Part shown: one piece after another, positions 1,626-26,856 of the stretch
How positions within the stretch are numbered: position 1 is the first letter of the stretch
Layout of the letters: each line of letters opens with the position of its first letter
Origin: Bermanella sp.
GTDB lineage: Bacteria > Pseudomonadota > Gammaproteobacteria > Pseudomonadales > Oceanobacteraceae
Length of the DNA: 32,000 nucleotides
Assembly (NCBI GenBank): GCA_034111105.1
Contig: JAWUXY010000047.1
Span: 3,519-35,518 of the forward strand
Reading direction: 5' to 3'
Notes under the pieces: generated by a model
The model's database searches: none
Told to the model about the DNA's origin: nothing
Seen by the model: the letters and a program-made list of their open reading frames with translations, nothing else
Program-made: the position numbers and the translations under genes

Positions 1626-1671
1626 GAGTCAACGACCCTCTATAAACGGCTAATAGAAAACATGGCAAACA

Positions 1672-2199
1672 TCACTGCATGACATAATTGGTAAATAATA
1701 TTTGTTCTAAACCACCCTCAATACCGGTTTCTTGTGTTATTAAGCGTTGAATTTCTTCTTGCAGTTTAATACGAACATCCGCTCGACCTTCTGCTGTGCG
1801 TAAATGCTCATAACTTTGCTGCCCTAGTAACGAAATGATCGAGCTTCGAATCATAGGGCTGTGCATTTCTAACGCTTCAGCAATGCCAGGGTCACGTGTC
1901 ATGGCTTCCATGTATATTTGTAGATACCGTTGGCGAGGACCCACTTGATAATTCACAATAAATTCAGGTTTCAATTTGATATAAATAGCAGGCCCCGCAG
2001 TCGGTGCAGTTTCGACTTCTTCGGCAACGGCATCCTCGGATGTTTCTTCTGCTGGTTCATCATCACCACCCATTAACAACAAAGCGGCTGCGACACCAAT
2101 GCCTATAACCAATACCGCGACTATGATAATGATGATCAATTTTTTATTGCTTTTGGGTGCTTCTACCGTATCCAATTGCAGTTCTTTTTCGTTCGCCAT
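1672..2199 (-). CDS. fliL: FliL flagellar basal-body-associated protein
   Basis: 175 aa with a single N-terminal TM helix (KKLIIIIIVAVLVIGIGVAAALLLM) followed by a FliL-like domain. Position is immediately upstream of fliM. Confidence 0.85.
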   Translation of the reverse strand: MANEKELQLDTVEAPKSNKKLIIIIIVAVLVIGIGVAAALLLMGGDDEPAEETSEDAVAEEVETAPTAGPAIYIKLKPEFIVNYQVGPRQRYLQIYMEAMTRDPGIAEALEMHSPMIRSSIISLLGQQSYEHLRTAEGRADVRIKLQEEIQRLITQETGIEGGLEQILFTNYVMQ

Positions 2200-2229
2200 A
2201 CGTCACCTTTTTGATGCTTAGTTAAAATC

Positions 2230-2245
2230 TGCAAGCCTTATGCCA
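2230..2245 (-). promoter_or_regulatory. Sigma-54 (-24/-12) promoter for fliLMNO...
   Basis: The minus strand reads TGGCAT-AAGGC-TTGCA (consensus TGGCAC-N5-TTGCW), with correct GG-N10-GC spacing. It lies about 31 nt upstream of the fliL ATG, and an AAGGTGA SD follows. Confidence 0.7.
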
Positions 2246-2328
2246 CGAACACAAAGAAACCTTTGGGTCTGTAGCGCCAATTTGCATAAGCTATTTATAA
2301 TGTAAGTGTAGACAAGAACAACAGAAGA

Positions 2329-2357
2329 GCCTTGCCACCGAGTTATGACGGCAAGGC
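2329..2357 (-). terminator. Hairpin after fliK, possibly a weak or attenuating terminator
   Basis: 8-bp GC-rich inverted repeat GCCTTGCC / GGCAAGGC with a 13-nt loop, 22 nt after the fliK stop. The downstream tract on the minus strand (TCTTCTGTTGTTCTTG) is only moderately U-rich. Confidence 0.35.
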
Positions 2358-2378
2358 GAAATACGAAGCGATAAAAAT

Positions 2379-3758
2379 TTAAGCGAAATAGTCCACCAGT
2401 GAATCACTTTCCATTGATTGAACCGCTTGTTCATCCGTCAAGTCAGAGTCGGAAAGGTCGCCCGCTATTTCGCCATCACCTGCCAGCCCATCATCAGTGT
2501 TTTGACCTTGTTGCTCACGACCTTGTTCAGAGACATTCACATCGGCTAAATTAATACCTTGTTGCTCTAATAGTTCACGCAGCCTAGGAGACTGTGCTTC
2601 TAATGCATCACGAACGGTTTGATTATTACTGCCAAACGCGACACTGACTTGATCGTTTTGAACTTTTATTTTCACTTCAAGTGAGCCTAACTCTGGTGGA
2701 TCCAATTGAATACGAGCAGTTTGTACACTTTCACTGGCCATGATACTGATGCGCTTCGCCACTTGATCATTCCACTGAGGGTGCTGAGGCGGCACATCTA
2801 ATTTATTAAACGTGGTTGAAAATTTTTCTGACATCTGGGTTTTAGAGGTATCTGTTTGATCCAGCGCCATGGATTTTGCAGGGTTAGCGTCTTTTAACCC
2901 ATTTAAGACTGCATCCGCTGTACCGGCTTTAACATCTTGCATCAGGCTAGGTTCTTGCGTTTGTGTAACGGGCGCGGCTGAATTTTCTTTTAAAACACTT
3001 AATGTTTTAGGCTGTTCATGGATCGACGTGTCTTCGAGTTCTAGTCCATCTAAGCTCACGTCATCCAACACGCTTTCCATACCAAGTTCATCAAGGTTGA
3101 TCATTTTACTATTTTGAGCGGCCATACCTGCCAGAGGGTTCACTGCTTGCTGGATAGGCTCGAGTAATTTTTCAGGCTCACCTTGACTGCCTTGCCTCAT
3201 GGCTAAATCCGATGGCGCTATTTTTACCTGACCATTGGCATCGGTTAACACGCCTTTCATGTCAAGAGCGTCGGTTTCTTCACTATCTAATGGTGCGCTA
3301 CTTTGTGTTTGAACTTGAAAATGTGGTTGCGCTCGACGCAAACTTTCAAGGTACTGTAACCCTTGCGGAGCATCTCCTTCGCTAGACTGTAAAGTGTCTG
3401 GTTGAATATTTTGAGCGTACAGCACACTACTTTCATCGCTGTGTATGTACACCTGAGGTTGCAGCGCAGGGGGACCCATAAAATCAGGATTTAGATCTTC
3501 AAGATGGTTATCGTCAAGGGTATACGTGTGCGGTAAATAAGCGGCAAATTCTTGCCCTATTGGCATGCTGGCGAGCTCACTCGCCGCTTGAAGTTGATCA
3601 AAGAAATTTAATCCATTTGCACCATTACTAGTCGTATCGGCAGAAAGACTACTGCTCTGAACTGGGCCTAAAACCCCTGCTTTACCCGTAATAGGCTGAG
3701 ATAACGGGTTGCTATTAGTAGTTGGTGAAACGAGAGCAAATAAAGGCGATACCGGCAT
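2379..3758 (-). CDS. fliK: FliK flagellar hook-length control protein
   Basis: 459 aa, Q/S/P/T-rich and disordered. C-terminal Flg_hook-type domain (ARIQLDPPELGSLEVKIKVQNDQVSVAFGSNNQTVRDALEAQSPRLRELLEQQGINLADVNV). Position is upstream of fliL. Confidence 0.85.
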   Translation of the reverse strand: MPVSPLFALVSPTTNSNPLSQPITGKAGVLGPVQSSSLSADTTSNGANGLNFFDQLQAASELASMPIGQEFAAYLPHTYTLDDNHLEDLNPDFMGPPALQPQVYIHSDESSVLYAQNIQPDTLQSSEGDAPQGLQYLESLRRAQPHFQVQTQSSAPLDSEETDALDMKGVLTDANGQVKIAPSDLAMRQGSQGEPEKLLEPIQQAVNPLAGMAAQNSKMINLDELGMESVLDDVSLDGLELEDTSIHEQPKTLSVLKENSAAPVTQTQEPSLMQDVKAGTADAVLNGLKDANPAKSMALDQTDTSKTQMSEKFSTTFNKLDVPPQHPQWNDQVAKRISIMASESVQTARIQLDPPELGSLEVKIKVQNDQVSVAFGSNNQTVRDALEAQSPRLRELLEQQGINLADVNVSEQGREQQGQNTDDGLAGDGEIAGDLSDSDLTDEQAVQSMESDSLVDYFA

Positions 3759-3793
3759 GACTTAACCCAATTAATTCTTTGATACAAAGAATT

Positions 3794-3809
3794 TGCAATG
3801 CTTAGGCCA
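3794..3809 (-). promoter_or_regulatory. Sigma-54 (-24/-12) promoter for fliK
   Basis: The minus strand reads TGGCCT-AAGCA-TTGCA. It starts 13 nt after the stop of the Hpt gene and lies about 36 nt upstream of the fliK ATG. Confidence 0.7.
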
Positions 3810-3821
3810 AGTTTTAAAAAG

Positions 3822-4154
3822 TTACTGTAATTCTTGAAGTTGGGCTTTAACCAATAAAAATTCTTGTTCTATCTTTTCAAATACTTGTGATACATCATCT
3901 AACTTTTGAGCTCGACCTGAGTCTTCAACTGTTTTAAATAATGCAGATAATGACTCTGCGCATACATTGGCACTCGAACCTTTTAAACTATGTGCTAACT
4001 CAGCTACTTGGAGGCTATCGGTTGAACTAATAGCCTCTTTTAAAGCCATCATTTTTGTATCACTATCATTAAGATAGGTCATGACAAGATCACCAAAGCT
4101 ATCTTCCATGATGTCTTTTAATTCTTCTATTTGCGAAATATTCAAGTGGGACAT
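3822..4154 (-). CDS. Stand-alone Hpt histidine phosphotransfer protein (HptB-like)
   Basis: 110 aa four-helix-type protein with the Hpt signature AHSLKGSSANV. Starts 5 nt downstream of the REC-PP2C-kinase gene. Confidence 0.85.
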   Translation of the reverse strand: MSHLNISQIEELKDIMEDSFGDLVMTYLNDSDTKMMALKEAISSTDSLQVAELAHSLKGSSANVCAESLSALFKTVEDSGRAQKLDDVSQVFEKIEQEFLLVKAQLQELQ

Positions 4155-4159
4155 AGCAC

Positions 4160-5875
4160 TTACTCCTCAAGCTGAGTTTTCCATGACAAGCAAACCTGTA
4201 CTTTGTTGCCTTTACCAAAATAAATAAGACTATCACATAAACTATAAATCAGTGGAATGCCTCGACCACAATAGGCTGAATTATCTTCAGATTTAAGGTT
4301 GAAATTGTTGTTATCATATTTAAATCCCTCGCCACTGTCTTCAACCACAATGGTGAGCTTACCACCCTTATCGAGTGGTTCAAGATCAAAGTCAAACTTA
4401 ACAAATGTATCCTTTAAAGATTCCATAGCGATATTACGTAAACGATAATATTCCGCAAAGCCATCAGCTGTTTTTTTAAGATCCGAACTTAAACCTAATA
4501 CACCGTGTTCAAATGCATTAGAGAATAGTTCCGCCATTAACGTATAAAGTTGACCACTTAAGTTACGCAGTGCAGGTACATCATTAAGTATATTCAACAT
4601 GACGGGAAGAGGATTAAATGTTTTTAGGGTCTCGTCTCTTAGGGTGTAGACCATATTCCAATCGGTCGGGCCCGTCACTGCACCACTGGATAAATCAATA
4701 TCAACTTTGGCAATCTCTGACTCATCCACCATTGATAACTCTAATAAAGTGGTATCATCATCACGACCATTCTCGCCTGCGAATTGATTCACATTTTTCA
4801 AAATATTATCGAAAAATAATTCACTATCAGGTTCATCAAAAATAGCAAATAAGCGCTCATCACCAAATAGTTCGCCCTCCGTATTACGGGCTTCTATGAT
4901 GCCATCAGACCACATATAAAGTTTATCACCCGGAATAAATCTAAACGTGGCAGTATCGGCATCAAATGCTTGTGATGACAACACACCCAGCGGCAAATGG
5001 TTTGATTTAATGCGTTCAATTTCTCCGGTTTCTTTACGATATAACCCAAAGTCCGGTAACCCACCCATCCAAACTTCTATTTCTTGGCGTCTGAAACTTA
5101 AATTCACCATACAGGTACAGCAAAAGTAACCTACTGGTAGTATTTTTTTTAGTTTGATATTTATTTCACGTAAAATATCAACCATGAAGAAGCCTTTGGC
5201 TGTCATACCATAAAATATTTCAGCAAGGGGCATCGCACCAATCGCAGCGGGCAAGCCGTGTCCGGTAAAGTCACCTAATAGAATATGAATACTGCCAGAA
5301 GGTTTGCGTGCTGCGAGCAAGACGTCACCATTAAAAATAGAGAATGGTGACAACATGTGTTTAATATTGGGTAGATCTAAACAACCACTGTGGGCCACAT
5401 TATCATAAACGGCTCGAGCCACTTGTTGCTCATGGCGCATATGTTCATTATTTTCTCTAATGACATCTCGCTGATCTTGTAGAGTATTATGCATTTTGAG
5501 CATACGACTAAATGCATTAATTTTAGCCTGCAAGATAATTTTGTTGTACGGTTTTGAAATGAAATCATCGCCACCGCTTTCAAGGCACGTAGCAAGATCA
5601 GACGCTTCTTGTAGGGAGGTTAAGAAGATAATGGGGACCATATCTTCACCTGCTAATGCCTTAATAGACTTAGCAGCTTGCTGCCCATTTAAGTTGGGCA
5701 TAATGACATCAAGTAAAATGATATCGGGTTTGTGTTCTAAAAATTGATTAATGGCTTCGTTGCCATCAGCCGCTTCACACACGCTGTGCCCCATTTTCTT
5801 AACAATGGCACACAGTATCATTCGGTCAGATTGATTATCATCCGCCACCAATATATGCAGTGGTGTTTCATCCAT
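4160..5875 (-). CDS. Response-regulator receiver + PP2C/SpoIIE Ser phosphatase + RsbW/SpoIIAB-like HATPase Ser kinase (HsbR-like partner-switching regulator)
   Basis: REC motifs are VADDNQSD, IILLDVIMPNLNG and ISKPY. PP2C motifs are GDFTGHGLPAAIGAM, WSDGIIEARN and GRDDDTTLLEL. The C-terminal HATPase has an N-box ELFSNAFEHG, G1 VEDSGEGF and G2 GRGIPLI. Confidence 0.88.
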   Translation of the reverse strand: MDETPLHILVADDNQSDRMILCAIVKKMGHSVCEAADGNEAINQFLEHKPDIILLDVIMPNLNGQQAAKSIKALAGEDMVPIIFLTSLQEASDLATCLESGGDDFISKPYNKIILQAKINAFSRMLKMHNTLQDQRDVIRENNEHMRHEQQVARAVYDNVAHSGCLDLPNIKHMLSPFSIFNGDVLLAARKPSGSIHILLGDFTGHGLPAAIGAMPLAEIFYGMTAKGFFMVDILREINIKLKKILPVGYFCCTCMVNLSFRRQEIEVWMGGLPDFGLYRKETGEIERIKSNHLPLGVLSSQAFDADTATFRFIPGDKLYMWSDGIIEARNTEGELFGDERLFAIFDEPDSELFFDNILKNVNQFAGENGRDDDTTLLELSMVDESEIAKVDIDLSSGAVTGPTDWNMVYTLRDETLKTFNPLPVMLNILNDVPALRNLSGQLYTLMAELFSNAFEHGVLGLSSDLKKTADGFAEYYRLRNIAMESLKDTFVKFDFDLEPLDKGGKLTIVVEDSGEGFKYDNNNFNLKSEDNSAYCGRGIPLIYSLCDSLIYFGKGNKVQVCLSWKTQLEE

Positions 5876-5896
5876 AGCGGACCTCAGCTATACCGT

Positions 5897-6196
5897 TTAT
5901 TCGATCGTAAACAGTTGCTCAAAGTTAGAAATCGTTAAAATCTTTTTAACATCCGCATTACAGCGGCTAATACGAACATTGGCACTTTCTCCGCCAGCAT
6001 GGTCACGTAGTAGTAGTAACATGCCTAAAGCAGAACTATCTAAATAAGACGCTTTAGCCATATCAATGACGTATTTATTGACACCACTATCAGCATCCTC
6101 ATACGCATCTCGAAACTCTTGATGAGCACTAAAGTCGAATCGTCCTTCAACAACGACCGTAAGTTCATCACCTTTAATAGAAGTATTTATCGGCAT
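5897..6196 (-). CDS. STAS-domain anti-sigma-factor antagonist (HsbA/SpoIIAA/RsbV-like)
   Basis: 99 aa with the canonical phospho-serine context YLDSSALGMLLLL. Lies 21 nt upstream of the PP2C/kinase gene. Confidence 0.82.
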   Translation of the reverse strand: MPINTSIKGDELTVVVEGRFDFSAHQEFRDAYEDADSGVNKYVIDMAKASYLDSSALGMLLLLRDHAGGESANVRISRCNADVKKILTISNFEQLFTIE

Positions 6197-6272
6197 GTCA
6201 AACCTCTTATATCCTTTGCGTAGTTTTACTGCTTTCTTTGAGCATAGTTCAAAAAAAATAGTTTAGTAAAAT

Positions 6273-7331
6273 TTAGTGTTTAATTGCGTTTTTTAATTTT
6301 TTTACCGTATGGGCTGCAATTTGATTCAAGGGTAGAATGATGTTTTCAGCGCCTAATTCGACTGCTGCACCCGGCATCCCCCAGACCACTGAGCTTTCTT
6401 TGTCTTGTACAATATTATAACTGCCAGCTTGTTTCATGCGTAACATTGCAGCCGCACCGTCGGCCCCCATCCCCGTTAACATAATACCAATCGTACGTTT
6501 AACTAACTGCGGGTGGCGTGTAATAGAATCAAATAACACTTCAACAGAGGGTTTATGTAAATTGACTCGCTCACCGTCATATACTTTGCAATAGAAGTGC
6601 CCGCCTTTTTGTAGCACCTCAAACTGCCGGTCACCAGGGGCTATGTAAATGTGACCTGGCATGATTTTATCGCCATCTTGTGCTTCGCTCACGTCTTGAG
6701 GGATAAGATTATTAATACGATTGGCAAATGAGCTGCTAAATACGGGCGGGATATGCTGAGTGATAACAATGGGCGGCGTATCAGCAGGCAGCATACACAG
6801 TAACTCACGAATGGCTTCTGTTCCTCCTGTTGACGCACCAATCACAATTATGGCGTCACGATTCAATCCTTGTTTCGTAATGGGCTTAACAGTTTTGCTA
6901 GCTGATCGATTAGCCTGAATTTCTAAGCGACTCACATTAGCGACTGAGGCCGTTCTTACTTTATTAACAATCTCATCAGCGTATTCGGCTAATAACTCAG
7001 GTTTATCGGCGCTAGGCTTACCGATATAATCCACCGCACCAATTTCTAATGCTTCAAGTGTTGAAGGGGCGCCTTTTTGCGTTAATGTTGAGATCATCAC
7101 CACTGGCAATGGGCGTAAACGCATAAGATTACGTAAGAAGGTAATGCCGTCCATTTTCGGCATTTCAATATCAAGTGTGATAACGTCAGGATTAAGTGTC
7201 TTGATTTTTTCCCTAGCAATATAAGGGTCGGCAGCCGTGCCCACCACTTCTATATTCGCTTGATTCGATAATATCTCAGTGAGTACTTTTCGTATTAAGA
7301 TAGAATCATCTACGATCAAAACTTTAATCAT
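6273..7331 (-). CDS. cheB: CheB chemotaxis response regulator protein-glutamate methylesterase
   Basis: N-terminal REC (IKVLIVDDS, DVITLDIEMPKMDG) plus a methylesterase domain (GASTGGTEA, ITQHIPP, LTGMGADGA). Confidence 0.95.
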   Translation of the reverse strand: MIKVLIVDDSILIRKVLTEILSNQANIEVVGTAADPYIAREKIKTLNPDVITLDIEMPKMDGITFLRNLMRLRPLPVVMISTLTQKGAPSTLEALEIGAVDYIGKPSADKPELLAEYADEIVNKVRTASVANVSRLEIQANRSASKTVKPITKQGLNRDAIIVIGASTGGTEAIRELLCMLPADTPPIVITQHIPPVFSSSFANRINNLIPQDVSEAQDGDKIMPGHIYIAPGDRQFEVLQKGGHFYCKVYDGERVNLHKPSVEVLFDSITRHPQLVKRTIGIMLTGMGADGAAAMLRMKQAGSYNIVQDKESSVVWGMPGAAVELGAENIILPLNQIAAHTVKKLKNAIKH

Positions 7332-7343
7332 GACCCACCTAAC

Positions 7344-7985
7344 TTAATCAAATAATTCAATATTAGAGTCATCTTTATGCTCCCTAATTGAATCGAGGTA
7401 ACCTTTTTCACGCTCAATGATCGTTTCATTGCGCGTCGTTGTAATTCGCCTAACTTTGACACTACCAGTATCAGGAAAATATAATATTTTTCGAGAAAAA
7501 ACATCCCCTACATCAGCGGCTTTTACTTTAATACCTTCTTTACGCAAAAAATCATAAGCAAATAAAATATTTCGCTGACCCACATCAGTCATACTCGCCA
7601 GTACTTGACCACCACCAAATAGCTTCACCTCAAGGTTGCGCTTTGAACACCCTAATTTATAAAGCGTATTTAATAGGTATTCCATTGCCCAGTTACCATA
7701 ACGAGTTTCTGATGTATTAGCATCACTCCCCCATTGTGGCGTACTGTGCTCATTTTGTATCGGCAACATAAAATGATTCATACCACCAATTCCTAACGTC
7801 ACATCTCGCACGCAAGCACTGATACAAGAGCCTAAAACGGTACTGATCATTTCACCGTGAGTCGTGATATAAAATTCACCCGGTAAAATCTTTGCTGACC
7901 ACACATTGAGCTTGGGATCAAAGTATCGATTAACATGTTCAAAACCCTTTTCAGCCACTGGCTGACTTAACGGATGATGATCCAT
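7344..7985 (-). CDS. cheD: CheD chemoreceptor glutamine deamidase
   Basis: CheD family motifs (TVLGSCISACVRD, GGMNHFMLP, VKLFGGG). The start overlaps the cheR stop by 1 nt (TAATG). Confidence 0.9.
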   Translation of the reverse strand: MDHHPLSQPVAEKGFEHVNRYFDPKLNVWSAKILPGEFYITTHGEMISTVLGSCISACVRDVTLGIGGMNHFMLPIQNEHSTPQWGSDANTSETRYGNWAMEYLLNTLYKLGCSKRNLEVKLFGGGQVLASMTDVGQRNILFAYDFLRKEGIKVKAADVGDVFSRKILYFPDTGSVKVRRITTTRNETIIEREKGYLDSIREHKDDSNIELFD

Positions 7986-8809
7986 TACCTTACCTTTTGA
8001 TAAATAGTGCGACCTTTAGGCTCAAACCGTGACGTCATACCGTGTAAGGTTTCACTGTGGCCAATAAACAAATACCCACCATCATTGAGTTGATCTGCTA
8101 GCCGTTCAAATAATTCTTTTTGTGTTTCTTTGTTAAAATAAATCACTACATTACGACAAAAAATAACATCAAATTTTGCCGTCATAGGCCATGGCCCTAA
8201 AAGATTAAGGCGGTTAAACTGAATCAGCGCTTTAATATCTGACTTAACCATTCCCATGGCAGTTCCCGAGTTTTGTTGAAAACAAGACAAGTAATCACGC
8301 GGCAATTGTTCGATTTCAGTTAGGGGGTACACCCCTTCTCGACCTTTTTTTAATACATCACTATCAAGATCAGTGGCTAAAATTTTAATATCATGCTGCT
8401 TGACCATCATATTTTTATATAATGTGATGGCAATGCTGTAAGGCTCGGGCCCAGTAGAACAAGCCGAAGACCAAATTCGAATAGGCTTAGACTTATCTTG
8501 TTTTTTCCACTGAGGAATAAGTTCTTTTGCTAAGTATTCGAAATGATGTGATTCACGAAAAAATGAGGTGAGATTAGTCGTAATTGAATTTACAAATTCA
8601 TTTACTTCAGACGTTTGGTTAGCATCTAAATATTTGCAGTACTGTGCAAAGTTTTTTAGACCCAGTTTTCTGATACGTCGAGATACACGACTGTAGACCA
8701 GTTCTTTTTTTTGATCACCCAGTACGATACCGCTAATATCATACGCCATGGCTGTGAGGCGTTTAAAGTCCTCATCAGCCATTGGGAATTCCTTTCCAGT
8801 GAAATCCAT
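7985..8809 (-). CDS. cheR: CheR chemotaxis protein methyltransferase
   Basis: Contains FFRESHHFEYL, the SAM motif IRIWSSACSTGPEPYSIA, DVIFCRNVVIYF and GGYLFIGHSE. Confidence 0.95.
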   Translation of the reverse strand: MDFTGKEFPMADEDFKRLTAMAYDISGIVLGDQKKELVYSRVSRRIRKLGLKNFAQYCKYLDANQTSEVNEFVNSITTNLTSFFRESHHFEYLAKELIPQWKKQDKSKPIRIWSSACSTGPEPYSIAITLYKNMMVKQHDIKILATDLDSDVLKKGREGVYPLTEIEQLPRDYLSCFQQNSGTAMGMVKSDIKALIQFNRLNLLGPWPMTAKFDVIFCRNVVIYFNKETQKELFERLADQLNDGGYLFIGHSETLHGMTSRFEPKGRTIYQKVR

Positions 8810-8823
8810 ATTAATTTACGTCA

Positions 8824-11800
8824 CTAAAATTCTTGCCAGTCATCATCATCATCCTTGACCACTGGGCGACTTGCCGTTGACGGTTTATGCGTCTGTGCCG
8901 TTGAGGCTCTTGGTTTATTGATTGAGGATTGACCTCCCCCATGATGACCGGATGATTGATGCATCGCCATTGGGCTTTGTACATCCGACCCGGATGCCAC
9001 TTTAAAGAAGCCAACTAAATCAAGCATATTTTTCGCTTGTTCGGTCATGGTTTCACTGGCGGCAGATGCTTCTTCAACTAAAGCCGCATTTTGTTGCGTC
9101 ATTTCATCCATCTGACTAATGGCTTTATTAACCTGTTCGATACCACTGGCTTGCTCTTCTGAAGCTGAACTGATTTCTTTAATCATTGTGTTCACTTTTT
9201 CAACAGCTTCGACGATTTCTGCCAATGTTTGTCCTGACTTGTTAACAAGGTCGGTACCGTTATCCACTTTTTCGACACTATCGCGAATAAGGTCTTTAAT
9301 TTCTTTTGCTGCACCTGCGCTGCGCTGCGCTAAGTTACGCACTTCACCGGCGACCACTGCAAAGCCTTTACCTTGCTCACCTGCTCGAGCCGCTTCAACA
9401 GCAGCATTTAGCGCTAATAAATTGGTTTGGAATGCAATCTCATCAATCACGCCAATAATATCTGCAATTTTTTTACTGGACGTATTAATTTCTTCCATCG
9501 CTCCCACTGCCTTGCTAACGACTTGACCACCCTTCTGGGCTTTGTCTTGCGCATTGGCCGCTAAGTTATTAGCGTGAGAGGCGTTCTCGCTGGTTTGACG
9601 CACCGAGCTTGTCATTTCTTCCATGCTAGATGCTGTCTCTTCTAAACTGGAAGCTTGCTCTTCTGTGCGTTGGCTTAAATCTGTATTGCCCTGTGCAATT
9701 TCAGTTGAGCCAGTACTTACGGTATTAGCTGATTCACGAATACGTCCAATGACATCGGTTAATCGTTCGCCTGTGGCGTTGGCATCTTGTTTTAGTTTTC
9801 CGAAAATACCTTGGTAATCAGCCTCTATACGCTCATCTAACTTACCATGAGCCATAGCGTCTAATACGCGCGCGGTGTCGTTAATGACGTTTTCAGAGAT
9901 TGTCATTAAACTATTAAGGCCCATGCATAAGTTTTTAAAGAACCCACTCTTATCATCCACGGTGGCGCGCAGACTTAACTCACCTTTACTTGCAGATTCA
10001 ATAATATTATCAACTTCACGTTCAACCGATACTTCTTCTGTACGATCACTCCATTCAACCACTGTACCTAATCGCTCCCCTTCTGGGTTAACAATTGGGC
10101 TCGCTATTAATGAGAACGTACGTCCACCTACAACAATTTGCGTTTTATAAGTATCTTTTAATGCCGCTAGCATTTGTCGTTGATGGGCAGGGTTTTTATG
10201 GAAAATATCAATATTACTGCCCAATACCTGACTGGCTGAAAATTGAGGTAAATCTTTACGCACATCAGATTCTGCTATGCGTAGCATGCCAGCTACGGCT
10301 TCATTGGTATAAATAACATTTTGATCATTATCAGCAATCATTGTATTCGCTGAACAAGCATCAAGTGCTAAACGAACGCGAGTATTTTCATCCGCTGTGC
10401 GTTTCTGCTCAGCCTCAAAAGTTAACTGTTCTGTTAAATCAAGCCACTCAACAACTGTACCAAGGCGTTTTTCATCTTGCCAAACAGGTGTCGCAACAAG
10501 ATTAAATGTTCTTCCACCTACTACAATTTTGGTTTTATAGACATCTCGAAGCTCACTAAGCATACCTCTCTGATGAGAAGGATTTTTATGGAATCCATCA
10601 ACATTAAATCCCATTAGATTTTTAACATCAAAATTCGGTAAATCTTTCTTAATATCCGATTCTGCATCACTCAGCATTTCAAGGACAGAATCATTTAAAT
10701 ATACGATATTTAATTCTTCATCAGCCATCATTACATTTGCTTGGCATACATCAAGCGCACTTCGTGTACGAGCATTTTCATCTCCTATCCGTTTCAACTC
10801 TGCCTCTGAGGCTAACGCTTCCGTCAAGTCGCGCCACTCAACAACTGTACCAAGGCGTTTTTCATCTTGCCAAACAGGCGTCGCAACAAGATTAAATGTT
10901 CTTCCACCTACTACAATATTGGTTTTATAAACATCCCGAAGGTCACGGAGCATTCCTCTTTGGTGAGAAGGATTTTTATGAAAACCATCGACATTAAAAC
11001 CCATTAGGTTTTTAACATCAAAGTTCGGTAAATCTTTCTTAATATCCGATTGTGCGTCATTCAGCATTTCGCGAACAGAATCATTTAAATATACAATATT
11101 TAATTCTTCATCTGCCATCATTACATTTGCTTGACATACATCAAGCGCACTTCGTGTACGAGAATTTTCAGCCGAAATTTTTTCTTCTCGCTCAGTTCGT
11201 GCTATTTCTTCTGTTTTATCTGTCCACTCAACAACTGTACCTATGCGCTTACCCTCTGCGCTCAATACTGGATTAACAATCAAAGAGAATGTCCGACCAC
11301 CAAGATTTAATTGGGTTTCATGTGTGCCTGATAACTTATCTAACATAGAGCGCTGATAGCTTGGGTCTTTATGGAAGATATCAATATTTTGCCCTAAAAC
11401 TTTATCAACTGAGAAGCTAGGGATGCTTTTTTTGATATCGTTTTCTGCGGTTACAAACATGTCTTTTACACCTTTATTGGTATAAACAAGATTGTATTCT
11501 TCGTCCGCTACCATCAAGCAAGACTCTGCACATGAATCTAATGCACGCTTAATTCGAGTATTGGAGATGCTTTCATTTTTCTGTCTTGTAACGTTAGTTG
11601 CAAATTTAATAACCTTATAAGGCTTACCATCTTCACCTAAAACAGGATTATAAGATGCTTGAATCCAAACTTCTTTACCACCTTTACCAATGCGTTTATA
11701 TTCTTCACTTTCAAATTCACCACTGTTTAATTTCTCCCAAAACATACGGTACTCATTACTTTCTTTAAAGCTAGGCTCTACAAATATACTATGATGCTTC

Positions 11801-12288
11801 CCTTTAACTTCATCGAGTGTATACCCCATAACACTTAAGAAATTATGATTAGCCGTAATAATTGTACCGTCCATGTTAAATTCGATAATCGCTTGTACTT
11901 TATCAATTGCAAACACTTTGGCTTCATTTTCTTTTTGATTACTGGTATCTGTGCTCGACACAATGCCTTTTATGCTATTGCGTAGGTTGACCAGGGTGTA
12001 TATTAATTTAGCTAATTCGTCTTTCCCTTTTGTACTTGGGTCGTAGCTATAATCACCATTAGCAGTGGCGTTTGCACTTCGAGTAGCCAAGACTAACACC
12101 GTCAACAACTTATGCGCTTGCATCCAATGAGCAATAAGCCCCGCTAAACACAACAAACTAAGTACAATTAAAGCATTGCCCGCTTGTTCTTGGGGGATTG
12201 TAATAAAGGCATATACCAAACCAACAAGAGGTAATATCCAAGGCATTATAAATTTATACTGTATGCTCATCCGGCTTAAACTATCCAT
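8824..12288 (-). CDS. Methyl-accepting chemotaxis protein, Aer2/McpB-like: TM hairpin, PAS, four Aer2-type PAS, HAMP, MA domain and a C-terminal DWQEF pentapeptide
   Basis: Highly conserved MCP hairpin tip [42 protein letters not shown]. Four modules carry FHK(N/D)PxxQR and GTVVEW. I place the start at the ATG at 12288 (AGGTGG SD 8 nt upstream); the ORF track starts at a GTG at 12300, abutting the cheW stop. Confidence 0.95.
10443..11170 (-). repeat. In-frame tandem duplication (period 390 nt = 130 aa) encoding two near-identical PAS modules
   Basis: My manual alignment of 10443-10780 against 10833-11170 gives roughly 26 mismatches in about 340 nt and no indels (about 92% identity). The flanking PAS modules (10045-10440 and 11170-11559) are clearly more diverged. 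Confidence 0.9.
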
Positions 12289-12300
12289 TTTTGTTACCAC

Positions 12301-12795
12301 CTAGTCATCAATCGTTAAAAGATTTTCAAGTTCTAATAGAATCACCATGTTTTTTTTCACAGTAACCAACCCTTTTATGAAGTTTGAATTCTTATTGTCA
12401 CCTAGCCCTTTATTTTTTGCATCGCCAATGGGTACGTCATACACATCACTGATAGCATCAACAATAATCCCCATTGTTCTCGTCCCATTCGCTGTGAATA
12501 TCTTAAGTACAATCACAACGGTTTCGTCTCCGTATTCCACTTTTGATAAATCAAAACGCAAACGTAAATCCATAATAGGGACAATGGTGCCACGCAAATT
12601 AATTACGCCTTTCAAATACTTGGGGCTATTAGGTATTGGGGTCGCTGACTCCCAACCTCTAATCTCTTGTACCGCTAAAATATCAACCCCGTATTCTTCA
12701 TCTGCCATAATGAACGTTAAATATTGCTCGGTCAGAACCCCATCTTCGAATCCAGCACGCTGATCTTTTTGTTCCACTTCACTCGTTGCAGTCAT
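12301..12795 (-). CDS. cheW: CheW coupling protein
   Basis: 164 aa CheW domain (EYGVDILAVQEIRGW, VINLRGTIVPIMDLR, GIIVDAISDV). Confidence 0.95.
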   Translation of the reverse strand: MTATSEVEQKDQRAGFEDGVLTEQYLTFIMADEEYGVDILAVQEIRGWESATPIPNSPKYLKGVINLRGTIVPIMDLRLRFDLSKVEYGDETVVIVLKIFTANGTRTMGIIVDAISDVYDVPIGDAKNKGLGDNKNSNFIKGLVTVKKNMVILLELENLLTIDD

Positions 12796-12810
12796 ATGAT
12801 CGGCTTTCCA

Positions 12811-14925
12811 CTATGCGGCTTTATGGCTACCATCAATAATTTTTGATGATGCCCCACTCATTTTTGACAAGCTGCTAATATCCACGATCAGTGCAACGGT
12901 ACCATCGCCTAATATAGTTGCACCTGAAATACCATCTACTCGTTTGTAGTTCTCTTCTAAACTCTTGATAACCACTTGCTGCTGACCTAATAGTTCATCA
13001 ACAACTACGCCCATTTTTTCACCATCGGTTTCAACCACAACAATGATACTTTCTTCAATGGGTTTCTTTTCTTTATCAATATTAAATACGTCATCTAGTT
13101 CAATAATAGGGACATATTCATCACGCAACTGAAGTACATCACTGTGGCCACCAACATGGTTAATGGCACGATCATCTAGCTGAATGGACTCCACAATACT
13201 GACCAAAGGAAATATGTATATTTCATCTCCGACTTTAACAAGCTGACCGTCTAAAATGGCAAGTGTTAGAGGTAATCGAATCACAAAGCGAGAACCGCGA
13301 CCTCTTTCTGAGCTTACTTCGATCGAACCGTTTAATGCTGAGATATTACGACGTACGACATCCATACCCACACCACGACCTGATAAATCACTGACGATGT
13401 CCGCGGTAGAGAAACCAGGTTGAAAAATAAGGTCAAAAATTTGTTCTTGGCTTAGGTTTGCACCTTCTGCCACTAAACCTTTTTCAATCGCCTTTGATAA
13501 TATACGGTCTGAATTTATACCCGCGCCATCATCTTTTATTTCAATGACGATATTACCGCTTTGATGATAAGCATCTAATTTAACCGTACCTGTTTCTGGC
13601 TTGCCTGCTGCAAGACGATCGGCTGGCACTTCAATGCCGTGGTCAATCGAATTGCGAATAAGGTGAACCATTGGGTCGCCTATTTTTTCCATTACCGTTT
13701 TATCAAGTTCGGTATTTTCACCTGACATTAACAGCTCAATTTTTTTATTAAGAGAAATACTCACATCCCGTACTAAGCGAGGGAATCGACTGAATACAAA
13801 GCTAATAGGCATCATGCGAATTTTCATCACACTCTCTTGTAGCTCACGAGTGTTGTGCTCTAATTGCGCTAGCCCTTCTTGTAAACGCTGTACTCTTGAT
13901 ATATCAAAATTTTGCCCAAGTTGCCCAAGCATTGATTGAGTAATCACCAGCTCACCAACCATATTAATTAAGCTATCAACTTTGTCGATACTCACTCGAA
14001 TAGATGAACTTTCTTGCGCCTTTTGTGGTGATTTAGCTTGGGGCTGAGCCTCTACGGCTTCCGCTTTGACGACGGTTTTTTCAGCGGGGGGCGTGGCTGG
14101 CGCAACAACACTCTCTGTTGGTTTTTCTTCACCTGCATTTGATGCATGTTCACCCGATGCTGAACCTGTCGAATCCACACCCATTGACAACGGTGTAATG
14201 ATAATTTCAGCATCATCAATGACCCATTCAAATACTTCATCTATTTCAGATTTTTCAATGGATTTTTCTATACGAATATCCCAAGCCAAATAACATTTCT
14301 CAGGATCAAGCCCAGTTAACTCAGGTAGACGTTGCGTATCGGCAATGACTTGCATTTGATAATCACACAGTTCGGCTAATTGGCGAAACATGCGCGCAGG
14401 TTCATTACCTGTTTGTAAAATAGTTAATTCCGGAATAAACCGAATATGCCAGCCACCGGCTTTATCATCATCTTGTTTGTCTACAGCAGGTGGTGACGGA
14501 GGCTCATCTGGTATGTTTGCATCTGTAGAAGCTGACCCGACATTTAAGATACTTTCAAATTGTGCTTTTAAACTATTGGTTTCAGTTAAGTTTGGATCAT
14601 TACCCGCCTGCAAGTCTTGTAATAACCCTTTGATGCAATCAACACTTTTCAATAGTAAATTCTGAATATCTTGACTCATGGCACGCTTGCCACTGCGTAT
14701 TTGATCTAACAATGTTTCTAGCACATGGGTAAACCCAGCCACTTGGTTAAAACCAAATGTCCCCGCTCCCCCTTTCATTGAATGTGCTGCGCGAAATATC
14801 GTATTGATTATCTCAGCATCAGGTTCCACCAAGTCTAGCTCGAGCAAACCTTGCTCCATAGCATCTAGACCTTCGTAGCTTTCTTCGAAGAATACTTGGT
14901 GAAATTGGCTAAGATCAATACTCAT
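12811..14925 (-). CDS. cheA: CheA chemotaxis histidine kinase
   Basis: P1 Hpt (AAHSMKGGAGTFG), P3/P4 (HLIRNSIDHGIE, DDGAGIN, GRGVGMDVV) and P5 CheW-like C-terminus. Confidence 0.97.
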   Translation of the reverse strand: MSIDLSQFHQVFFEESYEGLDAMEQGLLELDLVEPDAEIINTIFRAAHSMKGGAGTFGFNQVAGFTHVLETLLDQIRSGKRAMSQDIQNLLLKSVDCIKGLLQDLQAGNDPNLTETNSLKAQFESILNVGSASTDANIPDEPPSPPAVDKQDDDKAGGWHIRFIPELTILQTGNEPARMFRQLAELCDYQMQVIADTQRLPELTGLDPEKCYLAWDIRIEKSIEKSEIDEVFEWVIDDAEIIITPLSMGVDSTGSASGEHASNAGEEKPTESVVAPATPPAEKTVVKAEAVEAQPQAKSPQKAQESSSIRVSIDKVDSLINMVGELVITQSMLGQLGQNFDISRVQRLQEGLAQLEHNTRELQESVMKIRMMPISFVFSRFPRLVRDVSISLNKKIELLMSGENTELDKTVMEKIGDPMVHLIRNSIDHGIEVPADRLAAGKPETGTVKLDAYHQSGNIVIEIKDDGAGINSDRILSKAIEKGLVAEGANLSQEQIFDLIFQPGFSTADIVSDLSGRGVGMDVVRRNISALNGSIEVSSERGRGSRFVIRLPLTLAILDGQLVKVGDEIYIFPLVSIVESIQLDDRAINHVGGHSDVLQLRDEYVPIIELDDVFNIDKEKKPIEESIIVVVETDGEKMGVVVDELLGQQQVVIKSLEENYKRVDGISGATILGDGTVALIVDISSLSKMSGASSKIIDGSHKAA

Positions 14926-14929
14926 GAAT

Positions 14930-15292
14930 TTACCCTAGAACTTTCTTAATGGTGGTAAGAAGTTGATCAGGGTTGAATGGTTTTACGATCCAACCAGTTG
15001 CCCCTGCGCTTTTACCTTCCATTTTTTTATCACCGGCAGATTCGGTGGTGAGCATTAAGATCGGTGTGAATTTATAGCTCGGTAGCTCCCGTAATTTACG
15101 GCACAATTCAATGCCATTCATATTCGGCATATTCACGTCACTCAGTACAAGGTCAACTCCTTGTCCCTGTGCAAACTTTAATGCTTCGGCACCATCACTG
15201 GCTTCTACTACGTCGTGACCCGCCCCTTTTAATGTAAAGCTAACCATTTGGCGCATGGAGGCTGAATCATCTACTGCTAATATTTTTGCCAT
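14930..15292 (-). CDS. cheY: CheY single-domain response regulator
   Basis: 120 aa with all receiver residues present (VDDS, LVLSDVNMPNMNG, LMLTTE, VKPF). Lies 4 nt upstream of cheA. Confidence 0.95.
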   Translation of the reverse strand: MAKILAVDDSASMRQMVSFTLKGAGHDVVEASDGAEALKFAQGQGVDLVLSDVNMPNMNGIELCRKLRELPSYKFTPILMLTTESAGDKKMEGKSAGATGWIVKPFNPDQLLTTIKKVLG

Positions 15293-15308
15293 AAACTAGT
15301 CTCCCGAT

Positions 15309-15590
15309 TTAATGTCCATTCAATCCAATGTGTTCGTCAATGCCCAGCAACTTGGCTGTCGCGACTGTTTGCTCAGAGGGATTTGGCCAAGTGAGCTTAC
15401 GATCATATTTGGCTAATGCCTGATGAAAACTAAGGATAAGTTGTAATGCAGATGTGTCTATTTGCTCGACGCTTGCGGATTGAATTTCGATATCGTTACC
15501 GGATTGAATCAAGCTTTCCATTTGCCCATGCAGCTCCTCTGCCTTAACTATGGTACAGCGAGTACCTAAGTCGATTTTATCCATATCCAT
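15309..15590 (-). CDS. Small STAS-domain protein at the head of the che operon (CheS-like by position)
   Basis: 93 aa with a STAS-like core (VEQIDTSALQLILSF). Same size and position (directly upstream of cheY-cheA) as S. meliloti CheS. Assignment by motif and synteny only. Confidence 0.65.
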   Translation of the reverse strand: MDMDKIDLGTRCTIVKAEELHGQMESLIQSGNDIEIQSASVEQIDTSALQLILSFHQALAKYDRKLTWPNPSEQTVATAKLLGIDEHIGLNGH

Positions 15591-15680
15591 TTCTTGTACT
15601 GCCTTTAGCTCATTTATTGATAATGTTAGACGCTAATACAGAGAATGTTTGGGGCGGCAGAAAAATTATTTTATTAATAA

Positions 15681-16130
15681 TTATGAGCTATGAAGGCGAT
15701 GTAGTTGTGCGCCTATTTCATCTAAAAATTTTTGCATCTGTTGGTTTTCTGACGCAATTGCTTGATCATTAAGTCGGGATTCTAACTTTTCGTAGCTCTT
15801 CAACTTTTGATTAAGTGTTTGATAAATAGCTTGAGCTTTTTTAAGTTGCTCTTTAACTTGAAAAATATGGTTATTTTGTTGAGTGATGGCATCGTCTATT
15901 TGACGCATAAATGATTCAAACTGTTGTATCTGTAAACCAGAAACCTTTACGCTGGCTTGGGATTGAAAGTTCTCACGGTAATCTTGCTGGTAACCAAGTA
16001 ATGTATTACTTTTTTCTTGTTCACTATTCAGTTTTTGCTGAAGCGCACCTATATAAGAAAGTGCTTCATTAACCGCATTTTGGGCAATCTGTACTAATGG
16101 TTTGAGTCGTTTTGCGCGTTCGCGGCTCAT
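15681..16130 (-). CDS. fliJ: FliJ flagellar export chaperone/stalk protein
   Basis: 149 aa Q/K/E-rich coiled-coil protein. 4-nt overlap with the fliI stop and conserved fliI-fliJ synteny. Confidence 0.82.
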   Translation of the reverse strand: MSRERAKRLKPLVQIAQNAVNEALSYIGALQQKLNSEQEKSNTLLGYQQDYRENFQSQASVKVSGLQIQQFESFMRQIDDAITQQNNHIFQVKEQLKKAQAIYQTLNQKLKSYEKLESRLNDQAIASENQQMQKFLDEIGAQLHRLHSS

Positions 16131-17477
16131 GATACGTCAGTTGTATCTTGTGGCTGCGCATTTCGACCAATGGCTTCATTTAATATCATGGTTAACCCTT
16201 CCATACTTTCTTTTAACGTGATGGCTTGGTTTAAGTCTTGTGCTAAATACGCTTTCATTACTGGGTTCAAACGCACAGCAAGATCTAACTCAGGACTGCT
16301 GCCAGGGTTGTATGCTCCAACACTGATCAAGTCTTTATTTTGTTGATACAAGCTATACAAGTATTTAAATCGTTGTGCTGACTTTAAGGTTACAGAATCG
16401 ACAATTTGCGGCATTGCTCGACTGATGGAAGCTTCAACATCGATCGCAGGGTATTGGCCTTCTTCTGCCAAGCGTCGACTTAATACGACATGGCCATCGA
16501 GTATGGCTCGGGCAGAATCAGCAATGGGATCTTGCAGATCATCACCTTCTGTTAATACTGTATAAAATGCAGTGATGGAACCACCTCCCGGTGGACCATT
16601 GCCAGTACGTTCAACCAACTTAGGGATTTTAGCAAACACAGATGGCGGGTAACCTTTTGTGGCCGGCGGCTCGCCAACCGCTAATGCAATTTCACGCTGA
16701 GCTTGGCCATAACGGGTAAGACTATCCATCAATAACAGCACGTCTTTACCTTCATCTCGAAAGTATTCTGAAATAGCGGTGCTCAACGACGCCGCTCGCA
16801 TACGCATAATTGGGCTGTCATCTGCGGGGCTGGCGACTACAACGGCACGCTTTAATCCTTCTTCACCTAATATGTCTTGAATAAATTCTTGTACTTCTCG
16901 ACCACGCTCTCCTACCAAGCCAACCACGACAATGTCGGCGGAAGTAAACCGCGTCATCATACCTAACAGCATACTTTTACCGACACCCGAACCCGCAAAT
17001 AGCCCCATACGCTGGCCTCGACCCACCGTCAGTAAAGCGTTAATTGCTCGAATGCCCACATCCATTGTGTCGCGAATAGGCGCGCGCTTCATTGGATTGA
17101 TGATCTTGCCTTCAAGGCTGATGTATTCGCTGCTAACAATGTCACCAAGGCCATCTAAGGGCTGCCCTGCGCCATTGAGTACACGGCCTAATAAACCAAA
17201 GCCTGCTGGAATTTGGTCACCATCTAAAATTGGTGTGACCTTGGCACCCAGTGATAAACCTTGCACTGGCTCAATGGGCATTAAAAAGAATTTATCACGA
17301 TCAAACCCCACCACTTCAGCTTCTATCTGGCCATTGCCTTGCTCTACCCAGCAGCGATCCCCCACTTTTACTTTGCAACCTACCGCTTCCATAGTGAGGC
17401 CAACCATACGCGTCAACTGACCCGACACTGTGGGTTGGCAATAGTATTCACCATGTTCTTTTAACCAGCGTATGGAT

Positions 17478-17506
<29 letters not shown>
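16127..17506 (-). CDS. fliI: FliI flagellum-specific ATPase
   Basis: Walker A GSGVGKSMLLGM, Walker B DVLLLMDSLTRY, F1/T3SS-ATPase fold motifs. An alternative start is the ATG at 17488 (MSLKSIRW...). Either start overlaps the fliH 3' end. Confidence 0.97.
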
Positions 17507-18719
<1,213 letters not shown>

Positions 18720-26506: not shown

Positions 26507-26650
26507 GGTGCACCTTTACCCCAGTTTTTATTGACTTCATTTGGTCACAAACTCGTCGTTAATTTGACTAGTTTCTTCTAGTTAAGTTGATGAGGACGTT
26601 GCGGTCAAATAAATGACGATAAAACTTTATTGTTATTATTTATAAGCAAA

Positions 26651-26673
26651 GTAAATGATATTTTGTCATTTAC
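26651..26673. promoter_or_regulatory. Perfect 8-bp inverted repeat in the flrA upstream region (candidate operator)
   Basis: GTAAATGA-tattttg-TCATTTAC, about 145-165 bp upstream of the flrA ATG in an AT-rich 350-bp intergenic region. The cognate factor is unknown. Confidence 0.3.
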
Positions 26674-26807
26674 CTTGCATTAGCTTATTAGTGTCAAAAA
26701 AAATGAGATCTGTAAACCATTTTCTTCAATAGGTTCAAAATATTTTTCTAGCTAGTTAATTGTTTTTTAACTGTTTAATTCCTATAGCCCATATAATACG
26801 GGGGCTA

Positions 26808-26836: not shown

Positions 26837-26856
26837 AAAATATTGGCGAGTACTAA

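Follow-up and report, generated by a model that had tools for sequence, protein, structure and literature searches.

The locus considered here raises the question of why a complete chemosensory operon and a serine-phosphorylation switch should be embedded in the middle of a flagellar gene cluster. It was found in a Bermanella sp. (assembly GCA_034111105.1, contig JAWUXY010000047.1, positions 3,519 to 35,518 of the forward strand), and the stretch of 32,000 nucleotides that was analysed is referred to below as the window. The polar-flagellum cluster of the window lies on the minus strand and comprises fliS, fleQ, a fleS-like and a fleR-like gene, fliEFGHIJ, eleven extra genes and fliKLMN. According to open reading frame (ORF) calls and Pfam matches, the eleven genes, all on the minus strand, fill the junction between fliJ (15681-16130), which is preceded by fliEFGHI, and fliK (2379-3758), which is followed by fliLMN, and make up a block of 11,769 bp. 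They encode a STAS-only protein, CheY, CheA, CheW, an Aer2-like receptor, CheR, CheD and CheB, followed by a second STAS protein, a REC-PP2C-HATPase_c_2 regulator and a single-domain Hpt protein. The answer that we consider likely is that the block is a vertically inherited island of two modules, namely a chemosensory system of the stage-1 F7 type (Ortega et al. 2020) and an Hpt-HsbR-HsbA switch. Both halves and their linkage are already in the literature, which describes a cluster type of which the block is a variant.

From the coordinates, the gaps amount to 90 nucleotides between fliJ and the first STAS gene, –1 to 16 within the che block, 76 between cheB and the second STAS gene, 21 between the latter and the regulator gene, 5 between this and the Hpt gene, and 63 between the Hpt gene and fliK. 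Neither a CheZ nor a second CheY was found by Pfam and domain annotation across the 32-kb window. All of this agrees with an initial annotation made from the DNA letters, which had listed the eleven genes with their order, domains, strand, coordinates and gaps and had remarked on the missing cheZ and second cheY. The same annotation took a direct succession of fliJ and fliK to be the norm, after the polar-flagellum clusters of Vibrio, Shewanella and related Alteromonadales, and in this it was not supported, hsbAR-hptB being present at this junction in Pseudomonas putida, Hahella, Saccharospirillum and Salicola.

The distribution of the arrangement was followed by a species-level genome scan with the 571-amino-acid regulator, a tblastn synteny map and context look-ups. 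The same gene order recurs in at least 15 independent loci belonging to at least seven genera, and for this reason it is not due to chance. The arrangement extends in full from fliJ to fliK in a number of Bermanella-clade genomes, in Oceaniserpentilla, Thalassolituus, Bacterioplanoides, Oleispira and Maricurvus, and in one metagenome contig; Agarilytica has its downstream part. Such commonness in the lineage is one half of what the initial annotation had named as refuting its claim; as to the other half, a functional description of the arrangement from this lineage was not found in the literature. In Hahella, Saccharospirillum, Salicola and a related halomonad only the STAS-regulator-Hpt trio lies between fliJ and fliK. 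In a Saccharospirillum metagenome-assembled genome (MAG; locus L016, 7652-10231) the trio is not in a flagellar locus but after pheS-pheT, a gene of the HU/IHF type and a gene of the MerR family; a second REC-PP2C protein is encoded about 2.6 kb downstream of it. A Bermanella MAG from sea ice (locus L004, 9100-9720) lacks exactly cheY through cheB between its two STAS genes. This deletion is clean, in that no remnants of cheY or cheB were found at it, and the leftover 5′ STAS protein is 49% identical to that of the window, with Ser47 replaced by Pro; the neighbouring proteins are 82-95% identical, except for the fast-evolving Hpt and FliK.

The identities of CheA and of the HsbR-type regulator co-vary across loci (r=0.96, n=13). 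In neighbour-joining trees of HsbR the che-bearing taxa are never monophyletic (0/100 bootstraps), the che-less Saccharospirillum joins the che-bearing Oceanospirillales (75/100), and the che-deleted MAG falls inside the che-bearing core (100/100). From the co-divergence, the tree and the che-deleted MAG we conclude that the linkage is probably old and that the che genes have been lost repeatedly, the adjacency of the che genes and the switch apparently predating the divergence of these families. A recent foreign insertion of the block was also considered and was rejected, because there is no sharp break in GC content and the divergence of the block's proteins keeps pace with that of the flanking switch.

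The nature of the first module is best seen in its receptor, a protein of 1158 amino acids (8824-12300) with Pfam matches to HAMP, PAS and MCPsignal. It is built, in this order, of a transmembrane hairpin, a HAMP domain, an N-terminal PAS domain, four tandem heme-PAS units of the Aer2 type, from which the N-terminal PAS differs, a di-HAMP, a signalling domain and a C-terminal DWQEF. The two hydrophobic segments (residues 17-35 and 42-60) are only about six residues apart, and the receptor is therefore without a periplasmic domain. Compared with Escherichia coli Tsr, the signalling domain has a single indel, of three residues, before the kinase-control hairpin, and it is for this reason assigned to class 36H. 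Over residues 640-848 the alignment with the PAS/di-HAMP fragment of Pseudomonas aeruginosa Aer2 is ungapped (3VOL, E=6e-62), and PAS unit D is about 60% identical to the PAS domain of that protein, as counted from the alignment. Each unit carries an FHK[ND]P motif (residues 309, 440, 570 and 700) and a GTVVEW motif (354, 484, 614 and 745), and in these all four units hold the counterparts of the heme-coordinating (His234) and O2-stabilising (Iβ Trp283) residues of P. aeruginosa Aer2. That the receptor senses O2 or a related gas is thus a prediction well supported by homology. The pentapeptide DWQEF is of the same xWxEF type as the GWEEF with which McpB/Aer2 of P. aeruginosa ends. PAS units B and C stem from a recent 390-bp tandem duplication in the receptor gene (10443-11170, minus strand; 1.9 copies with 92% matches in Tandem Repeats Finder). 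Between one and three PAS-heme domains are known from Aer2 receptors that have been characterised. Among the syntenic orthologs the count runs from one to five or more PAS units (for example at 4055-7351 of locus L031 and 1239-6776 of locus L023), and the receptor ORF of Agarilytica, of 1846 amino acids, contains many PAS repeats.

The CheY protein (14930-15292, Pfam REC) is of the Vibrio cholerae CheY4 type. Its best relatives among solved structures are those of V. cholerae CheY4 (4H60/4HNR), at 145.7 bits; E. coli CheY scores about 77 bits and V. cholerae CheY3 72 bits. With V. cholerae CheY4 it shares W101, V53, M80, T82 and K89. No other protein of the block is as conserved: its identity across genera is 78-96%, which is above the conservation of FliI. 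As V. cholerae CheY4, a protein encoded in cluster III, does not bind FliM, control of the motor by a CheY of this type is unlikely. CheA (12811-14925) comprises domains P1 to P5, with Pfam matches to Hpt, H-kinase_dim, HATPase_c and CheW; its best match in the PDB is E. coli CheA, and its best NCBIfam match is the model of E. coli-type (F7) CheA, at 641 bits, under the cutoff of 793. The syntenic CheA of Thalassolituus is 62% identical to it, and TOL_2510 of Thalassolituus oleivorans is labelled F7 in the supplementary tree of Ortega et al. Only one CheW ORF (12301-12795, Pfam CheW, E=8e-34) lies between cheA and the receptor gene, at gaps of 15 and 0 nucleotides, and two are present in the Vibrio loci L033 and L035. 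The adaptation genes cheR (7985-8809, Pfam CheR and CheR_N), cheD (7344-7985, Pfam CheD; NCBIfam PRK13487, 234.8 bits, above the cutoff of 223) and cheB (6273-7331, Pfam REC and CheB_methylest; NCBIfam PRK00742, 415 bits, above the cutoff of 293) encode a methyltransferase, a deamidase and a methylesterase, respectively, and are placed downstream of the receptor gene, as they are in stage-1 F7 clusters. The 36H receptor of the Aer2 type, the CheY4-type CheY and the F7 label of the Thalassolituus protein together support the initial assignment of this part as Che2/F7-like.

The block opens with a STAS-only protein of 93 amino acids (15309-15590, minus strand; Pfam STAS_2, E=2e-11). A word-indexed protein search with this sequence gave only close relatives in the Bermanella clade, and the distant orthologs were reached through the contexts of CheA, CheY and the second STAS protein. 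Such orthologs precede cheY-cheA in Thalassolituus, Maricurvus, Oleispira, Bacterioplanoides, Pseudoalteromonas and Vibrio, and with the 5′ STAS proteins of the F7 clusters of the last two the window protein aligns by way of a common D-x-x-x-x-Q-L motif. The protein evolves fast, being with 33-87% identity among the least conserved of the block, and it is only 13-14% identical to the second STAS protein. The canonical phospho-serine position is occupied by Ala in all the genera examined outside the Bermanella clade, which itself has Ser there. The notion that it is a second substrate of HsbR was rejected as the default reading on account of this alanine in most genera. The decay that follows the loss of the che genes links its function to that of the Che proteins, and the best explanation is that it is an accessory of these proteins and not a phospho-switch. 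A protein of this kind is known from alpha-proteobacteria in CheS of Sinorhizobium meliloti, which is STAS-only, binds CheA and modulates the handling of CheY. Compared by position and description only, CheS of S. meliloti and Agrobacterium fabrum resembles the 5′ STAS protein in being STAS-only, in its size of about 95 amino acids, in being encoded directly upstream of cheY-cheA in a che operon, and in that the phospho-serine is dispensable in the 5′ STAS family. By contrast, CheS works with two CheY proteins, one of them a phosphate sink, and the window encodes one CheY.

The second module is made up of the last three genes. The first encodes a STAS anti-sigma antagonist of the HsbA type (99 amino acids, 5897-6196, minus strand; Pfam STAS), with a DSS motif at residues 53-55; YLDSSALGMLLLLRD is invariant in all the orthologs aligned. 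This invariance and an overall identity of 53-91% are as expected of a phospho-switch of the HsbA type, and an 88%-identical protein bears the name HsbA in its NCBI record. In P. aeruginosa HsbA the phosphorylatable residue is Ser56, and the unphosphorylated protein binds FlgM. The second gene encodes a regulator of the HsbR/CrsR type (571 amino acids, 4160-5875; Pfam Response_reg, SpoIIE and HATPase_c_2), and homology between CrsR/CrsA and HsbR/HsbA has been reported by Bouillet et al. Its catalytic motifs are intact in the REC domain (DD...D...T...K), the PP2C domain (GDFTGHG, SDG and DDDTT) and the kinase domain (ELFSNAFEHG, DSGEG and GRG). It is 48-87% identical to its syntenic orthologs, the upper value being reached in Bermanella and Oceaniserpentilla, and 32% identical to the F7-linked protein of Vibrio. 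The third gene encodes a single-domain Hpt protein of the HptB type (110 amino acids, 3822-4154; Pfam Hpt, E=2e-10) with an HSLKGSS motif; an Hpt gene is present in all the flagellar-locus cassettes and absent from the Vibrio clusters. The HsbA/HsbR/HptB architecture proposed for the trio at the outset is thus borne out by the Pfam domains and by a position like that in P. putida, where hsbA-hsbR-hptB heads the fliK operon between fliJ and fliK. The partners ascribed to the Pseudomonas switch are FlgM or a diguanylate cyclase for HsbA and RpoS for HsbR, and the literature on P. aeruginosa and P. putida is inconsistent in this respect: in P. putida, deletions and phospho-variants leave motility and FliA-dependent expression unchanged, HsbA was not co-purified with FlgM, and the switch inhibits the diguanylate cyclase CfcR.

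How the block may be transcribed was approached from its three intergenic gaps. A generic sigma-70 and terminator scan of positions 3600-16300 stayed at or below the shuffle expectation and gave nothing in the gaps, and conservation across relatives was for this reason used for the promoter calls. In the gap between fliJ and the first STAS gene (15591-15680, minus strand, 90 nucleotides) an alignment of eight relatives shows an element that is conserved in the clade, written gcgTCTAACATTAt or TCTAACATT, which may serve as the –10 of the che block. The gap between cheB and the second STAS gene (6197-6272, minus strand) contains a conserved T-run followed by GAACTATGCTCAA, with a candidate –10 (CTATGCT) at 6241-6250; the T-run and GAACTATGCT are kept in all eight relatives, including the che-deleted MAG. 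This element may be a –10 of the sigma-S/sigma-70 kind, parallel to the RpoS-dependent PhsbA of P. putida, so that the second module probably has a sigma-S-like promoter of its own. In the gap between the Hpt gene and fliK a sigma-54-like promoter, TGGCCTAAGCATTGCA, was recognised at 3794-3809 (minus strand) with the pattern TGGC-N7-TTGCA, and another at 2230-2245 (minus strand), upstream of fliL; in P. putida, internal promoters have been reported upstream of both fliK and fliL. The pattern occurs three times in the window versus 1.2 expected, and it is the positions of the matches that are informative, the count alone not being significant. The same pattern search gave no sigma-54 site upstream of either STAS gene, and there are no terminator-like hairpins in the three gaps.

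Several points weigh against the reading of the block as an inherited pair of modules of the stage-1 kind. The neighbour-joining trees on which it partly relies contain few taxa and are rooted with the Vibrio proteins, and the flagellar-locus HsbR and HsbA are separated by a long branch from the F7-linked pair of Vibrio (32% and 39% identity, respectively), so that they could be old paralogs beside which a che block was inserted. A search of PLSDB for further F7-linked REC-PP2C-HATPase sequences with which to root the tree gave only Vibrio chromids and truncated Methylomonas proteins. The locus tags HCH_00449-00458 in the tree of Ortega et al. suggest, judged by the tags alone, that the F7 cluster of Hahella chejuensis is at a separate locus, and the junction between hsbA and fliJ is a noted insertion point in Pseudomonas. 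Stage-1 F7 clusters have two cheW genes where the window has one, and the window also lacks their mcpA-like receptor and has an added Hpt gene. The promoter calls are at the level of a consensus, with a sigma-70 scan that is not above chance. With all this taken into account, the reading of the block as an inherited island of two modules is the one that we favour.

On the basis of the homologs, the island could work as follows. Module 1 (15590-6273) would be an F7 system of the ancestral type, of the stage-1/Che2 kind, in which the membrane-anchored receptor, through its four heme-PAS units, would respond to O2 or a related gas and control CheA through CheW. CheA would in turn phosphorylate CheB and the CheY4-type CheY, through which the output of the module would run, and CheR, probably tethered at the C-terminal DWQEF of the receptor, would set adaptation together with CheD and CheB. 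Since a CheY of this type is not expected to act on FliM, module 1 would not steer the motor. In module 2 (6196-3822) the Hpt protein would phosphorylate the REC domain of HsbR, and this phosphorylation would set the balance between the PP2C phosphatase and the kinase acting on the serine of the HsbA DSS motif. HsbA and HsbR would then bind or release anti-sigma factors, sigma factors or a diguanylate cyclase, with a shift in lifestyle or stress programmes as the outcome, and fliK would be served by its own sigma-54 promoter. Some coupling of the two modules is plausible in view of the deeply conserved adjacency, and we give it about an even chance, with CheY-P or the 5′ STAS protein as a likelier route than the transfer of phosphate from CheA to HsbR, which probably does not take place directly.

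Direct transfer was the core of the wiring put forward in the initial annotation, in which an O2-sensing array acts through CheA-P on the REC domain of HsbR and the second STAS protein titrates FlgM and thereby controls the late flagellar genes dependent on sigma-28. The adjacency of the two modules is indeed conserved from Vibrio to Oceanospirillales, CheA and HsbR co-diverge, the cluster sits inside the flagellar cluster, unphosphorylated HsbA of P. aeruginosa binds FlgM, and Fortier et al. propose that Che1 feeds CrsR/CrsA in Shewanella oneidensis; moreover, the Vibrio and Shewanella clusters are without an Hpt gene, so that CheA is the nearest candidate donor there. However, every flagellar-locus cassette has a dedicated Hpt gene after HsbR, the cassette remains intact where the che genes are absent or deleted, and the second STAS gene is preceded by a conserved promoter-like element of its own. 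Furthermore, CheA2 and RsbU did not interact in a two-hybrid assay in V. vulnificus (Stuffle et al. 2022, data not shown there), and the syntenic cassette of P. putida has no effect on motility or FliA and gave no co-purification of HsbA with FlgM. All things considered, this wiring is improbable. An indirect coupling, in which CheY-P or a CheA-bound 5′ STAS protein engages HsbR/HsbA, for instance by competing for the HsbR kinase domain, and the REC domain is not phosphorylated, fares somewhat better but is itself decidedly doubtful. The exceptional conservation of CheY, exceeding that of FliI, suggests that its partner is conserved too and is not FliM, the 5′ STAS protein decays after the che deletion though HsbR and HsbA stay, CheS offers a precedent for a STAS protein that binds CheA and influences CheY, and the kinase domains of HsbR/CrsR bind STAS proteins across species. 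Nevertheless, the 5′ STAS protein has little in common with the HsbA-type STAS protein, its likeness to CheS is one of description, and a second, sink CheY as in CheS systems is missing.

It is also conceivable, if somewhat unlikely, that the two modules are mere neighbours, the che block having settled at an insertion-tolerant junction between hsbA and fliJ without any cross-talk. The F7 system would then act elsewhere, perhaps by crosstalk of CheD or CheB with the main chemotaxis array, and the switch would be fed by hybrid kinases via the Hpt protein. This would agree with the listing of hsbA-fliJ as a preferred insertion point for extra genes in Pseudomonas flagellar clusters, with the presence in many genomes of a switch unaccompanied by che genes, in one case away from flagellar loci altogether, with the lack of linkage between Che2 and HsbRA in P. 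aeruginosa, with the separate promoter-like elements of the two blocks, and with a reported crosstalk of Che2 with chemotaxis through CheD (Stuffle et al. 2022). It would nonetheless call for repeated chance juxtaposition, as STAS/phosphatase pairs stand beside the F7 clusters of Vibrio, Shewanella and Methylomicrobium as well, and it leaves aside the co-divergence of the modules and the identical order in che-bearing clades that are split by taxa without che genes. Least credible, and in our opinion very remote, is a second aerotaxis pathway that controls the motor and whose place among the flagellar genes serves to co-express the two. The position between fliJ and fliK would suit such a pathway, and the Aer2 receptors of P. 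aeruginosa and V. cholerae, when heterologously expressed, drive E. coli CheY and tumbling (Stuffle et al. 2022). Against it stand the CheY4-type CheY, the missing cheZ, the report that Aer2 systems do not modulate flagellar motility directly (Stuffle et al. 2022), and the control of the motor by F6 in species with a stage-1 or stage-2 F7 system.

To go one step further, the island of two modules could have a history in which the hsbA-hsbR-hptB trio that Pseudomonas, Hahella and related bacteria have in their flagellar clusters is the relic of a stage-1-like F7 cluster at the fliJ-fliK junction, and in which, in genomes that retain the che genes, the Aer2 array biases HsbR/HsbA via CheY-P or the 5′ STAS protein. 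We put this forward as a speculation that is rather less likely to be right than wrong by a wide measure. If it were true, the oxygen or energy state of the cell would be tied to an output through sigma-28, sigma-S or cyclic di-GMP (c-di-GMP), and the long-sought output of the ancestral F7 systems would be identified. The output of the ancestral (stage 1 and 2) F7/Che2 systems is an acknowledged question, and this block bears on it as well as on the input signals of HptB-HsbR-HsbA. It also comes with natural controls: the che genes are cleanly deleted in close relatives, sister genera have the switch only, and the receptors vary from one heme-PAS unit to five or more. Both modules being in one block, and these controls being at hand, the cultivable Bermanella, Thalassolituus and Oleispira are convenient for tests of the link between Aer2 and the switch. 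The arrangement overturns nothing; its interest is mainly that of a natural system in which to learn what ancestral F7 systems do.

Some observations concern the surroundings of the block and the records used. Near fliS, on the opposite strand, a protein of 689 amino acids with TPR and S-adenosylmethionine (SAM)-methyltransferase domains is encoded (27575-29644, plus strand), and a protein of 736 amino acids (29727-31937, minus strand) has as its family match only a weak one to HZS_alpha. There is no ORF of the size of fliT between fleQ and fliS (gap 26507-26856). FliH (17478-18719, minus strand) is long, at 413 amino acids, of which the FliH domain covers residues 129-251 only, and its N-terminal extension includes a weak Yae1_N-like repeat; its ortholog at locus L030 has 490 amino acids and is without a recorded Pfam match. 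Proteins identical to those of the window are filed at NCBI as “Pseudomonas sp. HK3” (Pseudomonadaceae), a genus label that looks wrong, because Bermanella and Oceaniserpentilla have the proteins closest to them (79-87% identity). Likewise, some “plasmid” records of PLSDB are chromosomal or chromid sequences, namely L034 (NZ_CP099945.1), a 31-kb piece of Pseudoalteromonas with rplQ, lexA and cytochrome oxidase genes, and L033 (NZ_CP046066.1) and L035 (NZ_CP045351.1), which are Vibrio replicons of 1.3-1.85 Mb. In the Pseudoalteromonas piece STAS-cheY-cheA adjoins the cytochrome oxidase genes and not flagellar genes. At L033, in Vibrio sp. THAF191d, the stage-1 F7 cluster closes with the REC-PP2C-HATPase gene, and the very next gene (26286-27959, plus strand) encodes FapA (flagellar assembly protein A), an adjacency that constitutes a second physical link of this cluster type to flagellar genes.

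How, then, does the block compare with known systems? The linkage of Che proteins to a partner switch, for which the initial annotation knew of no characterised example, has in fact been described more than once. The ancestral stage-1 F7 cluster is essentially STAS-cheY-cheA-cheW-aer2-cheR-cheD-cheB-STAS-serine phosphatase (Ortega et al. 2020), the same layout is found in V. vulnificus che2 with RsbU/RsbV (Stuffle et al. 2022), the che1 cluster of S. oneidensis comes with CrsA/CrsR, where Che1 has been suggested to take part in RpoS regulation (Fortier et al.), and a STAS/phosphatase pair adjoins F7 che genes in Methylomicrobium as well. As for che genes at the fliJ-fliK junction itself, the only related statement found in the literature is the remark, made for P. 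putida, on the hsbA-fliJ insertion point.

With Che2 of P. aeruginosa (cheY2-cheA2-cheW2-aer2-cheR2-cheD-cheB2) the window shares the core order, the single cheW, an Aer2 receptor with heme-PAS and the lack of cheZ; the P. aeruginosa system differs in having McpA in front, no flanking STAS genes and a single PAS domain in a soluble receptor, unlike the window receptor with its predicted transmembrane hairpin. The che1 cluster of S. oneidensis is likewise an F7 Aer2 system linked to a switch of a STAS protein and a REC-PP2C-anti-sigma/kinase protein, but there the switch comes before the che genes (mcpA-crsA-crsR-cheY..., a stage-2 order), it is without a 5′ STAS gene, an Hpt gene and a location in a flagellar cluster, and the characterised target of its switch is RpoS; the regulatory tie between the Che proteins and the switch is, in S. 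oneidensis, a proposal only. Likened by architecture and position, the HptB-HsbR-HsbA systems of P. putida and P. aeruginosa have the three architectures of the trio, the order hsbA-hsbR-hptB and the serine of the DSS motif, and in P. putida the trio is also directly upstream of fliK and downstream of fliJ, with a –10 of the sigma-S type before hsbA. In Pseudomonas, however, there are no che genes between fliJ and hsbA, where the window has eight, and Che2 of P. aeruginosa is encoded elsewhere.

The likeness to cluster III of V. cholerae and che2 of V. vulnificus extends over both modules, as these have, on one strand, a 5′ STAS gene, a cheY of the CheY4 type, cheA, cheW, a gene for an Aer2-like 36H receptor, cheR, cheD and cheB, followed by genes for a STAS protein and a REC-PP2C-HATPase_c_2 protein. 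The stage-1 layout was confirmed at two loci on Vibrio chromosome 2 (L033 and L035), the last gene in both encoding a REC-PP2C-HATPase_c_2 protein, and the window proteins are 62% (CheY), 48% (CheA) and 50% (CheB) identical to those of L033. The Vibrio STAS protein and phosphatase are, by contrast, only 39% and 32% identical to the window pair; their receptors have two or three heme-PAS units, and that of the window four plus the extra N-terminal PAS; and a chemoreceptor (MCP) of 398 amino acids is encoded in Vibrio between cheB and the second STAS gene, where the window has only the 76-nucleotide gap. Finally, the Vibrio stage-1 clusters are carried by chromosome II, whereas the cluster of the window stands between fliJ and fliK.

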